Of a DNA stretch of 5,154 nt, positions 1 to 3,629 are shown in pieces. A program made the translations under genes and the position numbers. The notes under the pieces were generated by a model that had not been told where the DNA came from, ran no database searches, and was given only the letters and a program-made list of their open reading frames with translations. The stretch comes from a virus. Lineage: Duplodnaviria > Heunggongvirae > Uroviricota > Caudoviricetes. The stretch lies in the IMG/VR virus record IMGVR_UViG_2802429228_000005. One strand, 5' to 3'. Position 1 is the stretch's first letter. Each line of letters begins with the position of its first letter.

Positions 1-1968
1 TCGAAGAACGCGGCGAAAACCTCAGAAACGAATGCAGCTAACAGCGCACAGGCAGCAGCGGCCTCACAGACTGCATCGGCAAACTCCGCGACAGCAGCCC
101 AAAAATCAGAAACCAACGCGAAAAATAGCGAAACAGCCGCAAAGACGAGCGAAACCAACGCGAAGTCCAGCCAGACGGCAGCGAAAACCAGCGAAACGAA
201 TGCCAAAGTCAGTGAAACTGCGGCGAAAAACAGCCAGGCTGCAGCAGCTGAAAGCGAGAGCGCAGCAGCCGGTTCTGCGACTTCAGCAGCTGGATCAGCA
301 ACTGCTGCGGCTAACAGCCAGAAAGCTGCGAAGGCGAGCGAAACTAACGCAAAGTCCAGCCAGACGGCAGCGAAGACCAGCGAAACGAATGCCAAAGCCA
401 GCGAAACTGCGGCGAAAAGCAGTCAGGATGCAGCAGCCGAAAGCGAGAGTGCTGCAGCTGGTTCTGCAAGCGCGGCGGCTGCTTCTGCCACTGCATCAGC
501 TAACAGTCAAAAAGCAGCAAAAACCAGTGAAACCAACGCAAAGGTGAGCGAAACAGCGGCTGCGAACTCAGCGAAAGCATCCGCTGCAAGCCAGACAGCA
601 GCTAAAGCAAGTGAGGATGCAGCCAGAGAGTATGCAAGCCAGGCTGCGGAGCCGTATAAACAAGTTTTGCAGCCGCTTCCCGATGTGTGGATACCGTTTA
701 ACGATTCACTGGATATGATTACGGGCTTTTCGCCGTCATATAAAAGGATTGTTATTGGCGACGATGAAATAACAATGCCTGGCGACAAGATTGTAAAGTT
801 TAAACGCGCATCAAAAGCAACCTATATTAATAAATCTGGTGTGCTGACAGAGGCTGCCATTGACGAGCCACGATTTGAACGTGATGGCCTGCTTATTGAG
901 GGGCAAAGAACGAACTTCTTCCCGAACAGTACAGACCCTTTGAAGTGGAATAAGTCAACTTCACTGGACGTTACAGAAACAGGCACAGATAGTTTCGGTT
1001 TTAATTATGGCCGGTTTGTCGTACAGGATTCGATTGTTGGCACAAGTAAAGCGCATACCATTATAGGGCTGTATACAAGTACCGGAGGGGTTGATACTTC
1101 AGGTGACGAAAAGTATGTAACTATATCCTGTCGGGTAAAAAGTGAAGTTGATAATATCGCCGTTCGTATTTTATTTGAACATTATGATGGGGAAGTAAGG
1201 ACATCAATAGGAACAGCAAGCCTGAACCTTACCACCCGCATAATTAGCAAGACGGGTCAGACAAGCCGTGTTACAGCAAGGTCTGTTAAGGATGATGCAA
1301 CTGGCTGGATATTTTTTGAGGCTACATTAAAAGCAGATACAACAGAAAATACGGTTGGTGGTTTCGTCCAGTATTCTCCGGATACAGGTCAGATGGTGGC
1401 ATCAGGGGATTATCTCGATGTAACCACTCCACAGATTGAGGCTGGTACAGGCGCATCATCTTTTATTGTTACGGGGACGGCACCGGCAACGCGGGCAAGC
1501 GATATGGTGACAGTCCCAATCAAGAATAACCTTTATAATCTTCCTTTTACGGTTCTTTGTGAGGTACATAAGAACTGGTATAAAACGCCAAATGTAGCGC
1601 CGCGTGTTTTTGATACCGGCGGTCATCAAACCGGAGCGGGGATCGTAATGGGGTTTGGTTCATCAGGTGGGTACGACGGTTTTCCGTATTGCGATATAGG
1701 TGGTTCAGACCGACGAATAAATGAAAATGCCGGGCTGGAAAAAATGGTTATGGGGATGCGTGTAAAGTCAGATCAGTCTACGTGCTCAGTAAGTAACGGG
1801 CGTATATCCAGCGAAACAAAAACCACATGGTCATATATTCAGAACTCCGCAATTATCCGTATTGGAGGCCAGACTACAGCCGGGTTACGCCATTTATTTG
1901 GTCATATCAGGAATTTCAGAATATGGCACAAGGCATTGACTGATGCTCAGATGGGGGAGTCAATCTAA
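1..1968 (+). CDS. Side tail fiber protein, 3' portion (5'-partial, gene starts upstream of the window)
   Basis: Frame 1 is open from nt 1 to the TAA at 1966-1968; the first in-frame start (GTG 544) is internal, and the upstream codons continue the same repeat pattern, so the ORF-track call 544..1968 is a truncation artefact. The N-terminal part is Ala/Ser/Thr-rich with reiterated S-E-T-N-A-K and S-Q-T-A-A-K motifs typical of phage fiber shafts. The C-terminus (...IRIGGQTTAGLRHLFGHIRNFRIWHKALTDAQMGESI) matches the C-terminal signature of concanavalin-A/LamG-like jelly-roll lectin domains used as receptor-binding tips. Confidence 0.85.
   Translation, partial: SKNAAKTSETNAANSAQAAAASQTASANSATAAQKSETNAKNSETAAKTSETNAKSSQTAAKTSETNAKVSETAAKNSQAAAAESESAAAGSATSAAGSATAAANSQKAAKASETNAKSSQTAAKTSETNAKASETAAKSSQDAAAESESAAAGSASAAAASATASANSQKAAKTSETNAKVSETAAANSAKASAASQTAAKASEDAAREYASQAAEPYKQVLQPLPDVWIPFNDSLDMITGFSPSYKRIVIGDDEITMPGDKIVKFKRASKATYINKSGVLTEAAIDEPRFERDGLLIEGQRTNFFPNSTDPLKWNKSTSLDVTETGTDSFGFNYGRFVVQDSIVGTSKAHTIIGLYTSTGGVDTSGDEKYVTISCRVKSEVDNIAVRILFEHYDGEVRTSIGTASLNLTTRIISKTGQTSRVTARSVKDDATGWIFFEATLKADTTENTVGGFVQYSPDTGQMVASGDYLDVTTPQIEAGTGASSFIVTGTAPATRASDMVTVPIKNNLYNLPFTVLCEVHKNWYKTPNVAPRVFDTGGHQTGAGIVMGFGSSGGYDGFPYCDIGGSDRRINENAGLEKMVMGMRVKSDQSTCSVSNGRISSETKTTWSYIQNSAIIRIGGQTTAGLRHLFGHIRNFRIWHKALTDAQMGESI
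148..525 (+). repeat. In-frame tandem direct repeat, 189-bp unit (63 codons), two full copies (148-336 and 337-525) with partial, more diverged copies on both sides (about 1-147 and 526-600)
   Basis: Copy 1 translates SETNAKSSQTAAKTSETNAKVSETAAKNSQAAAAESESAAAGSATSAAGSATAAANSQKAAKA and copy 2 SETNAKSSQTAAKTSETNAKASETAAKSSQDAAAESESAAAGSASAAAASATASANSQKAAKT. They are near-identical at nucleotide level (e.g. aagtccagccagacggcagcgaa[a/g]accagcgaaacgaatgccaaag in both). A third unit begins at 526 (SETNAKVSETAAANS...). Confidence 0.85.
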
Positions 1969-2249
1969 TGAAAGATTTAACACTCAAATTTGAAGACAGG
2001 GCCGACTTTTCGGCCTTTATGGATAGCACTGGCTATTATGATGACGAGTCGATGCAGGATGATATTCTTATTGACGTGATAGGTAACGTGTACAAAGAAA
2101 CCGGAGAACTGACTGAAGATGGCGAACCGGTATGTGTTAAGGAAGACGGATATTTTGTAAACGTGCGCATCATTAATGATGTGAAAACACCGTCATTATT
2201 CGATGAATACGCGGTTGCTGTTGAGCATCAACTTCGTGGCTGGATGTGA
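1968..2249 (+). CDS. Hypothetical small acidic protein (93 aa) translationally coupled to the upstream fiber gene; possible fiber-associated chaperone or adaptor
   Basis: Its ATG (1968-1970) overlaps the fiber stop TAA (1966-1968) as TAATG. A GGGGAG Shine-Dalgarno lies at 1953-1959. I count 22 Asp+Glu against 8 Lys+Arg (net about -14). It sits between two fiber genes. I recognise no family motif. Confidence 0.65.
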   Translation: MKDLTLKFEDRADFSAFMDSTGYYDDESMQDDILIDVIGNVYKETGELTEDGEPVCVKEDGYFVNVRIINDVKTPSLFDEYAVAVEHQLRGWM

Positions 2250-2258
2250 GGAAGGAAA

Positions 2259-3299
2259 ATGGCTACATCGACAGTAATTCCTGATGATATCAAAACGCTA
2301 AAATCCGACGTTAGCAAATTAAAAACCGATCAAGGAAGCTACGCAACAAAATCATATGTAGACAGCAAAGATGAAACCGTTGGTGACTGGTCTGCTTCAT
2401 GGTATCAGCAGGTATTGCCAACTAGCGGAGCTATATTTGGGAGAAAACTCCGCTCAACTCACCGGACGGCAGGTGTTGAGGATGCGTATTGCGAACTATA
2501 CCTCAAAAAATGGATAGACAGTCCAGGTAACGCAATGGCGCGCCTTAACCTGAACGATAACGGGACAAACATTTGCTGGGACTTTACCAACCTTTATGGC
2601 GGTACGATGATTTTTCCCGGTGACAGCGGATACCTCAAAATGGGTAACTGCCTTATGTCATACAGCAAGCGTGGAAGTAACGCGCTTATTAAATTTGATT
2701 ACACCGACACATTACAGATCAAATATGCTAATCATGGGTCAACCATGACATTAAACACACAGGGAACCGCTCACGCTGGCGTAACAACTCGACTATGGGG
2801 CAATTCTAGCCGTCCGGTTGTTTATGAAGTTGGCGTAGATGAGGCTCTGTATATGTTCTACGCACAGAAAACTACCAGCAATACCTACGAATTAACGGTT
2901 AACGGCGCGTGCAATGCAAGTGCATTTAATCAAGGCTCTGACCGGGATCTGAAAGACAATATTCAGGTGATAGATAATGCAACCGACCGCATTCGTAAAA
3001 TGAACGGCTATACATACACGCTTAAAGAAAACGGTATGCCTTACGCTGGTGTTATTGCACAAGAAACCCTGGAAGCCATCCCCGAAGCCGTAGGGTCTAT
3101 GATGAAATATCCAGACGGCGGGAGTGGATTAGATGGAGAAGAAGGTGAACGGTATTACACTGTAGATTATTCTGGTGTTACTGGCTTGCTTGTTCAGGTA
3201 GCCAGAGAGTCAGACGACAGAATAACAGCACTGGAAGAAGAAAACGCAGAATTAAGACAAAGATTATCTGCAATTGAGGCGGCGCTTGCGTCTAAATAA
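2259..3299 (+). CDS. Tail fiber / tailspike-like protein (346 aa) with C-terminal intramolecular chaperone auto-processing domain (peptidase S74 type)
   Basis: Strong RBS GAGGAAGGA (2248-2256) ahead of ATG 2259. Residues 227-280 (GSDRDLKDNIQVIDNATDRIRKMNGYTYTLKENGMPYAGVIAQETLEAIPEAV) match the conserved S-D-x-x-L-K-x-N-I ... G-x-I-A-Q-E ... P-E-A-V core of the intramolecular chaperone domain of endosialidases and T5 pb1-type fibers. The C-terminal heptad-like stretch ITALEEENAELRQRLSAIEAALASK is the coiled-coil end usual for that domain. Confidence 0.85.
   Translation: MATSTVIPDDIKTLKSDVSKLKTDQGSYATKSYVDSKDETVGDWSASWYQQVLPTSGAIFGRKLRSTHRTAGVEDAYCELYLKKWIDSPGNAMARLNLNDNGTNICWDFTNLYGGTMIFPGDSGYLKMGNCLMSYSKRGSNALIKFDYTDTLQIKYANHGSTMTLNTQGTAHAGVTTRLWGNSSRPVVYEVGVDEALYMFYAQKTTSNTYELTVNGACNASAFNQGSDRDLKDNIQVIDNATDRIRKMNGYTYTLKENGMPYAGVIAQETLEAIPEAVGSMMKYPDGGSGLDGEEGERYYTVDYSGVTGLLVQVARESDDRITALEEENAELRQRLSAIEAALASK
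2937..3299 (+). other. Predicted intramolecular chaperone (S74) domain; the conserved Ser227 codon (tct 2937-2939) marks the expected autoproteolytic site
   Basis: The domain boundary is inferred from motif onset at G-S-D-R-D-L-K-D-N. In characterised members this module is released after trimer folding. Confidence 0.7.
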
Positions 3300-3328: not shown

Positions 3329-3341
3329 GGGTAGGATGAAA

Positions 3342-3629
3342 ATGGATATAACACCTTTCCTTCATGCTCTTTGTGCTGTGGCTGCGCAGCTACTGATTGG
3401 TCTTTTTACCGGGAACTGGGCTTACGGAGCGATAGCCGGTTGTACGTTCTTCATTGCGCGTGAACACACCCAGGCAGAATATCGCTGGATTGAAATGTTC
3501 GGGCATGGCAAGCGTATGAATATGCCGTGGTGGGGCGGTTTTGATCCACGTGCATGGGATGTGGCAAGCCTGATGGATTTTGCTGTGCCGGTGGTGGCGT
3601 GTCTGCTGATCTGGATGTTGATCCGTTAA
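3342..3629 (+). CDS. Small hypothetical inner-membrane protein (about 95 aa, 2-3 predicted transmembrane segments); accessory (moron-like) gene
   Basis: The ORF track opens at TTG 3327. ATG 3342 is the more plausible start because AGGA (3333-3336) sits 5 nt upstream; ATG 3336 is also possible. Hydrophobic stretches FLHALCAVAAQLLIGLFTGNWAYGAIAGCTFFIA and VASLMDFAVPVVACLLIWMLI flank a polar W/G/P-rich loop (RWIEMFGHGKRMNMPWWGGFDPRAW). I cannot assign a family. Confidence 0.6.
   Translation: MDITPFLHALCAVAAQLLIGLFTGNWAYGAIAGCTFFIAREHTQAEYRWIEMFGHGKRMNMPWWGGFDPRAWDVASLMDFAVPVVACLLIWMLIR

Follow-up and report, generated by a model that had tools for sequence, protein, structure and literature searches.

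The right end of a lambdoid Escherichia coli prophage is contained in IMG/VR virus record IMGVR_UViG_2802429228_000005, a stretch of 5,154 nucleotides (nt) which, at its full length, is referred to here as the window. Its plus strand carries the 3' part of the side tail fibre gene stf, an open reading frame (ORF) of 93 codons whose product we call p93, the gene of a short fibre protein of 346 amino acids (aa; p346) and the gene of a 96-aa membrane protein. After the membrane-protein gene, a DinI-like gene and an integrase gene lie on the opposite strand. An initial annotation, made from the sequence alone, had drawn attention to the small ORF as a strongly acidic protein coupled to the fibre gene and had proposed a fibre chaperone, an adaptor for the downstream fibre or a DNA mimic. 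In this study, we show that p93 belongs to a family of phage proteins encoded together with fibres that end in a ConA/LamG-like domain, and that p93 is very probably an accessory of such fibres.

The p93 gene spans positions 1968 to 2249 (plus strand). The initial annotation had recognised the ORF correctly but had set its start at 1966, where the stop codon of the fibre gene begins. The stop codon of stf (TAA, 1966-1968) and the start codon of p93 (ATG, 1968-1970) overlap by one base in a TAATG junction (1966-1970, plus strand), a translational coupling signal that we see as described earlier. A Shine-Dalgarno-like GGGGGAG is found within the end of stf at 1953-1959 (plus strand), 8 nt before the ATG. 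From the overlap, 1:1 coupled expression of fibre and small protein had been concluded; the overlap is present, but the ratio is a deduction from it and is not displayed by the sequence. With 13 D and 9 E (22 acidic residues) against 5 K and 3 R (8 basic residues), the recount agrees with the net charge of about -14 given before; the isoelectric point (pI) is 4.06, the charge at pH 7 is -14.4 and the mass is 10.7 kDa.

Residues 1-93 of p93 align with positions 1-92 of the 92 positions of the profile phrog_1361 (E 4.4e-45), and the PHROG scan of p93 gave matches solely to phrog_1361 and phrog_18574. phrog_1361 is also matched by a 110-aa protein of rV5-like phages (E 7e-27) and by orf136 of phage AKFV33 (E 3e-29). 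Homologues occur in 181 phage records, and when 1.84 billion proteins are searched the family members fall into only 51 clusters at 50% identity. Strong acidity is common to the whole family, with net charges of -7 to -18 and pI values of 4.05-4.52 among 67 distinct sequences. An identical copy of the gene is present in E. coli VTB97074v. Among 5426 complete genomes of this species, 988 (18%) carry the window-type allele, with up to five copies per genome and throughout annotated as 'hypothetical protein'. The ratio of nonsynonymous to synonymous substitution rates (dN/dS) of the small gene is 0.19-0.42 in three prophage clades. Because of the end-to-end profile match, the many homologues and these low ratios, the ORF is far beyond what chance would produce; p93 is encoded by a real gene under purifying selection. 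A copy with 90% identity to the E. coli prophage gene lies on a 2.8-kb scaffold assigned to a Collinsella metagenome-assembled genome (L183, JAGZNZ010000051.1), likely as a binning contamination.

Searches of Pfam and NCBIfam returned no family for p93 at E <= 1 and hence no Tfa-type match (Caudo_TAP, PF02413), as the initial annotation had stated. According to Pfam p93 has no S74 domain either, this domain being located in the downstream p346. Against the PDB, both the single sequence and the profile gave chance-level matches only (GAPDH, telomerase p19). An AlphaFold2 (AF2) model computed on a 23-row alignment reaches a predicted score in the local distance difference test (pLDDT) of 85.3 and presents a small alpha/beta protein of beta-alpha-alpha-beta4 fold, with a strand at residues 2-8, helices at 11-21 and 27-32 and then four more strands. 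The tail, residues 70-93, is modelled with lower confidence, yet it bears the nearly invariant R90 and W92. Comparison of the model with known folds yielded no informative relative, and neither a known fibre chaperone nor a DNA mimic was among the matches. Natural fusions were looked for in the first 176 loci, where the family hidden Markov model matched no ORF of more than 115 aa. Two long representatives, P0156 and P0159, matched repeatedly over a stretch of 25-30 residues only and were taken to be a presumed repeat-motif artefact.

The gene upstream of p93 is the 3' part of stf (655 codons; 1-1968, plus strand), which is open from position 1 to the TAA and has its 5' end beyond the window. 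It matches phrog_1419 'tail protein' (E 2.2e-241), and its relatives carry the annotation side or lateral tail fibre. The C-terminal tip of the fibre (1486-1965, plus strand) is a ConA/LamG-like domain that closes with the family signature IRIGGQTTAGLRHLFGHIRNFRIWHKALTDAQ; this assignment draws on homologues and on a sub-threshold match to Pfam Laminin_G_3, which scores 19 bits in the window fibre at a cut-off of 27.6. Two homologues exceed the cut-off for the same domain, namely AKFV33 orf137 (36.2 bits) and L179, a distant metagenomic relative (31 bits), and a signature of the form ...GGQTxxGxRHLFGHIRNFRIWHKALTDxQ... ends all 26 aligned fibre ends. In the BASEL-2 study, the equivalent fibre of phage Bas32, Gp22, was termed 'galectin-like' (PMC11990801). 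The tip is preceded by a head domain (892-1497, plus strand; aa 117-318 of a 474-aa piece) related to the RcGTA head spike fibre, as indicated by NCBIfam NF048003 (69.5 bits, cut-off 36) and by PDB 6TB9 (E 2e-4).

In order to describe the neighbourhood of the family, 174 loci were gathered from annotated phages and IMG/VR, spanning lambdoid, T5-like, Seurat-, Dhillon-, Warwick- and rV5-like phages. The small gene overlaps the stop codon of an upstream ORF of more than 150 aa in 170 of them, half by the 1-nt TAATG (85 loci) and half by a 4-nt ATGA (85 loci). The four loci in which no such overlap is seen include that of phage 4A7; there, three transposase genes of insertion sequence type split stf 5' of an intact small gene (L090, 1917-4333). 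The linkage also holds in the converse direction. Among 80 viral contigs that were picked by a relative of the fibre tip alone, 79 have the small gene just 3' of the tip, and on the 80th merely 27 nt of DNA remain past the fibre. The tip is found in 205 and p93 in 181 phage-database records, with the same organism profile. Profile scans of contigs from genomes detected nothing for the fibre tip and, for p93, only three close Escherichia-type loci. A fibre-linked, structural role had been preferred to a DNA mimic in the initial annotation, and synteny in both directions now lends strong support to this preference.

The fibres that share the tip are anchored to their virions in different ways, by phage_tail_N domains in lambdoid and Seurat phages, by Tail_spike_N in rV5-like phages and by T5-type LtfA N-termini; head, LamG tip and small gene therefore constitute a mobile cassette. 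Alleles of the same locus illustrate the pairing. In vequintaviruses, the LamG-tipped allele (EmilHeitz) is accompanied by the small gene and the S74-ended allele (rV5 gp41) is not; likewise, the LtfA of phage DT57C ends in S74 and is without a small gene. Some records named 'Campylobacter phage' or 'Listeria phage' (MG065692.1, MG065654.1, MG065635.1, MG065666.1, OR848352.1, OR847733.1) hold fibre modules of E. coli T5-like or rV5-like phages with protein identities of up to 100% and are probably mislabelled or contaminated. On a 25-kb contig (IMGVR_UViG_2724679539_000001, L010/L012), two convergent modules of stf, small gene, 346-aa fibre and membrane protein stand about 5 kb apart, which may reflect adjacent prophages or an assembly artefact.

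Downstream of p93 the window encodes p346 (2259-3299, plus strand), preceded by a Shine-Dalgarno sequence GAGGAAGGA in the 9-nt spacer (2248-2256, plus strand). p346 is a short distal fibre which matches phrog_4563 'tail fiber protein' (E 5e-213) and carries a C-terminal S74 intramolecular chaperone at aa 227-278 (nt 2937-3092; Pfam Peptidase_S74, E 8.6e-14). Its N-terminal peptide MATSTVIPDDIKTLK (2259-2303, plus strand), followed by a heptad-like DIxxLKxDVxxLK stretch, is common to many distal proteins and is a candidate docking peptide. In 107 loci, a distal protein lies 9-12 nt 3' of the small gene and starts M(A/V)T(S/K)T(V/I/N)IPxDIxxLK; the 9-12 nt gap is kept in nearly all loci with a distal fibre. 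Despite this common N-terminal peptide, the bodies behind it are unrelated and differ in length across five phage groups: S74 fibres of 346 and 234 aa in prophages, T-shaped fibres of 574 and 576 aa in T5-like phages, and proteins of 388-510 aa in Seuratvirus (388 and 510), 166 aa in Warwickvirus and 98 aa in Dhillonvirus. Full-length matches to the peptide turned up only in phages with the small gene, other fibres matching the distal N-terminus from residue 27 on or via coiled-coil-like repeats only. A divergent clade (AZ21, L180) combines a small protein of about 30% identity with a different distal N-terminus (MANR...). The interchangeable 346-aa (window 2259-3299) and 234-aa (L023:7292-7996) distal-fibre cassettes have only the first ~20 residues in common, and both are found behind the window-type and the PhiR47-type small protein alike.

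The distal fibre is not always present. In 49 loci the small gene is followed directly by the membrane protein gene; these belong mainly to the phage 21 clade, in which 46 of 50 loci are of this type and none has a distal fibre. Nevertheless, the small ORF of this clade (92 aa) is intact in every locus, with a dN/dS of 0.32. Phage ev243, L179 and the rV5-like phages also possess the small gene without a peptide-bearing distal fibre. Thus, the invariant unit is the LamG-tipped fibre together with p93; the distal fibre is optional and never occurs without the other two. The initial suggestion of an adaptor for the S74 fibre receives support insofar as the common distal peptide was seen at full length only with the small gene, but docking that fibre is not the sole or defining task of the protein.

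Comparison of 80 close loci revealed a mosaic centred on p93. A DNA block from about 1861 to 2290 is conserved; it takes in the final 35 codons of stf, the p93 gene and the opening codons of the distal fibre. The block is flanked by variable receptor-binding regions, the head of the fibre (900-1860) on one side and the body of the distal protein on the other, which are freely exchanged. The head is the most variable stretch among relatives and can be aligned as DNA in only 17% of these loci. Alleles of p93 and tip are paired loosely: p93 pairs of more than 90% identity adjoin tips of just 38-42% identity, and tips about 90% identical adjoin p93 variants just about 41% identical. Any target of p93 is therefore a conserved framework feature and not the variable receptor-binding surface. 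The identity of p93 correlated positively with that of every fibre segment (rho 0.31-0.69); common descent is a confounder in these correlations, which are not used as evidence here.

As the LamG-tipped fibre and p93 form the constant part of the cassette, we assign p93 to the fibre accessory proteins with high confidence. What kind of accessory it is can be said more tentatively. The two-way linkage with the fibre, the restriction of the distal peptide to loci bearing p93, the parallel divergence of small protein and distal N-terminus in the clade of AZ21 and L180 and the conserved DNA block around p93 favour a joint. In the explanation that we prefer by a small margin, p93 may be a subunit at the tip or joint which remains attached to the fibre and assists in receiving the N-terminal peptide of the distal protein; binding to the fibre and presence in the virion are what we infer. 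The cassette would then comprise two or three parts, namely a fibre with a GTA-spike-like head and a ConA/LamG-like tip, p93 and, as an option, a short distal fibre. With its translation coupled to the fibre stop codon, p93 would bind to conserved framework features of the LamG-tipped fibre at its end, where it would remain as a tip or joint piece. Alone or with the fibre end, it would offer a presumed receiving surface for the distal M(A/V)T(S/K)TVIPxDIxxLK peptide, and the outcome would be a branched fibre with two receptor-binding units. A stricter version, in which p93 is a stoichiometric 'knee-cap' of the virion and a universal socket for distal fibres with an 8-15-residue plug of this sequence, is possible, though less likely than not. 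The same reserve applies to a three-component plug-and-socket mode of branching that might be common to temperate lambdoid prophages and to virulent T5-like, Seurat-, Dhillon- and Warwick-type phages, and to the notion that a p93 acting as such a knee-cap might be without sequence or fold relatives among known fibre joints and chaperones.

A number of points weigh against p93 as a joint, and several of them suit an assembly chaperone that helps the LamG fibre to fold and trimerise in trans and is absent from the virion, the distal fibre docking on the proximal one directly. Such a pure chaperone is a possible explanation to which we give some, though not the greater, credence. The slot directly 3' of a fibre gene is the classic place of a non-structural assembly chaperone, for instance lambda Tfa, and p93 is coupled in precisely this position in 170 of the 174 loci. 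A joint role cannot account for the retention of the gene in those phages in which no distal fibre carries the peptide, namely the phage 21 clade (46/50), ev243, L179 and the rV5-like phages; the purifying selection seen in the phage 21 clade fits a chaperone. The rV5-type locus, with its small gene beside the LamG-tipped allele and none beside the S74-ended one, is likewise in accordance with a chaperone. Loose allele pairing makes it less plausible that p93 and the variable tip regions share a tight interface and co-evolve, and it suits the recognition of a conserved framework or of a folding intermediate. The conservation of the junction between p93 and the start of the distal gene could be mere physical linkage over about 30 nt. 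Moreover, the virion proteomes found for carriers of the gene, AKFV33 (four gel bands) and swan01 (five proteins), do not place p93 in the virion, both being too shallow. The chaperone, for its part, leaves the restriction of the distal peptide to p93-bearing phages unexplained; p93 resembles no known fibre chaperone in sequence or fold, and LamG/ConA-like domains usually fold by themselves. One published model speaks against both explanations, as a confident homotrimer prediction was obtained for the tip of Bas32 Gp22 with the small protein absent (sum of interface and overall predicted template modelling scores, ipTM+pTM, 0.94; PMC11990801).

The acidity of p93 invites two further interpretations. 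p93 might act as a transient cap, an acidic 'glycan mimic' on the lectin face of the LamG domain that keeps new fibres off host lipopolysaccharide and debris and is shed later. Chaperone caps that are shed in this way have been proposed for fibres of Alteromonas phages (Gonzalez-Serrano 2023, as cited in PMC11990801), and the strong acidity throughout the family, the obligate pairing with a lectin-like tip and the retention of the gene where a distal fibre is absent would all agree with a cap. However, the glycan-binding loops of the tip vary and p93 does not vary with them, and we consider a cap improbable. It is more improbable still that p93 serves as a DNA mimic or in some other way against host defences, or that it is a moron for lysogenic conversion riding in the late operon. 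Small size and the net charge of -14 are all that recommends such a role, features which p93 has in common with T7 Ocr and ArdA. Unlike an independent passenger, p93 was never found separated from the LamG-tipped fibre, whichever of the two served as the starting point, in temperate and virulent phages alike, and it has no promoter of its own but depends on coupling to the fibre gene. Anti-restriction genes are normally expressed early, whereas p93 is encoded in the late structural operon and is tied to the fibre gene; profile and fold comparisons gave no similarity to DNA mimics.

Among known fibre accessories, the Tfa proteins of lambda, Mu and P2 type are comparable in being small proteins encoded directly 3' of the side tail fibre gene, and p93 of lambdoid phages occupies the very position of lambda tfa. 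p93 differs from them by the lack of a Caudo_TAP match and by its partner, which is a ConA/LamG-like and not a Tfa-dependent tip. It is also only about half as long as lambda Tfa (194 aa) or T4 gp38 (183 aa). In T4, the small accessory proteins gp35 and gp36 form the joint of the proximal and distal half-fibres. They are an analogy to the proposed joint role of p93, and the PHROG scan shows no relation in sequence. Klebsiella phages of KP32 type (PMC13352976) have a branching domain in the primary receptor-binding protein RBP1 and, in the neighbouring gene, a second receptor-binding protein, RBP2, in which a short N-terminal peptide is conserved while the body can be exchanged; the second protein resembles the distal fibres found here. 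In the present family, by contrast, a separate 93-aa protein is encoded between the two genes, a branching domain of the primary fibre was not identified, and the phages, whose hosts are E. coli and Salmonella, are of siphovirus and myovirus type instead of podoviruses. LtfA and LtfB of DT57C (PMC4728585, PMC10713586) likewise represent a second fibre on a proximal fibre at the same genomic position in Tequintavirus, and the distal fibres described here are LtfB-like with an S74 chaperone; but in DT57C there is no small gene between ltfA and ltfB, LtfA ends in S74 and not in LamG, and the N-terminus of LtfB is unrelated.

We found no paper that assigns a function to the p93 family. Bas32 comes nearest to a structural context. 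According to BASEL-2, its proximal fibre bears the distal fibre Gp24; the models listed in Table S7 of that study are solely separate homotrimers of Gp22 and of Gp24, so that the joint is unmodelled, and the family member Gp23, encoded between the two, is undiscussed (PMC11990801). p93 is the evident candidate for the unmodelled proximal-distal joint of the Bas32-type fibre. Two BASEL GenBank records label the small gene 'tail fiber protein', which is annotation and not evidence, and other genome records label it 'hypothetical protein'. The AKFV33 paper lists orf136 as hypothetical, its mass spectrometry having covered four gel bands (PMC3326045), and a paper on coastal coliphages mentions 'two genes upstream of ltfB' in mar004NP2 that were left unresolved. 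A good virion proteome exists for rV5, in which the gene is absent (gp41 is S74-ended), and the cryo-electron microscopy paper on phi92 resolved no such protein. Two further leads were abandoned, as STF-V10 proved to be the phiV10 tailspike and a paper on tail spike tips has gpJ as its subject. For AKFV33 orf137 (L177 369-2990), the predicted mass of 83.05 kDa differs from that of the 95.8-kDa gel band (PMC3326045, Table 3), and the gap comes near to the mass of orf136 (10.16 kDa), an ORF in frame directly past the orf137 stop. A fusion of fibre and p93 by frameshift or read-through was considered and dismissed as a conserved mechanism, since the frame relation of the two genes differs among AKFV33, SelmaRatti and the window.

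The remaining features of the window lie at its two ends. At about 1-660 (plus strand), the stf sequence reads as a shaft of imperfect tandem repeats of SETNAK type (SETNAK(S/A)S...AA). About 92-95% of the 80 related loci share this shaft, with 93-98% identity of the DNA. The last gene of the operon (3339-3629, plus strand) encodes the 96-aa membrane protein (phrog_1443, function unknown), which is probably outside the fibre complex. Its start is ambiguous between TTG 3327 and ATG 3339, giving a product of 96-100 aa. A phrog_1443 protein ends the late operon in all lambdoid clades, the phage 21 homologue being annotated with two transmembrane domains, and is a candidate lysogenic-conversion or exclusion gene. 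In three relatives, HannyBb (PP925841.1), Tritos (OV696610.1) and PhiR63_1 (PV340573.1), genes for an invertase, PinR or a serine recombinase are situated just 3' of the fibre module and hint at an invertible host-range switch; the window is without such genes.

The p93 family has been catalogued as phrog_1361 and is common, being present in at least six phage groups, but it is unannotated. Tail-fibre accessories as a kind of protein are known, and this variant is unrelated to the known ones. Published models leave the distal/proximal joint of the Bas32-type lateral fibre unmodelled (PMC11990801); p93 would fill this gap in models of branched lateral fibres and would overturn nothing. If p93 is a chaperone only, it would represent a new, unrelated class that serves lectin-tipped fibres, and transplantation of such tips would require p93 to be transferred along with them. 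Fibre accessory proteins govern the assembly of engineered or swapped fibres, which makes the family relevant to the host-range engineering of vectors based on lambda and T5.

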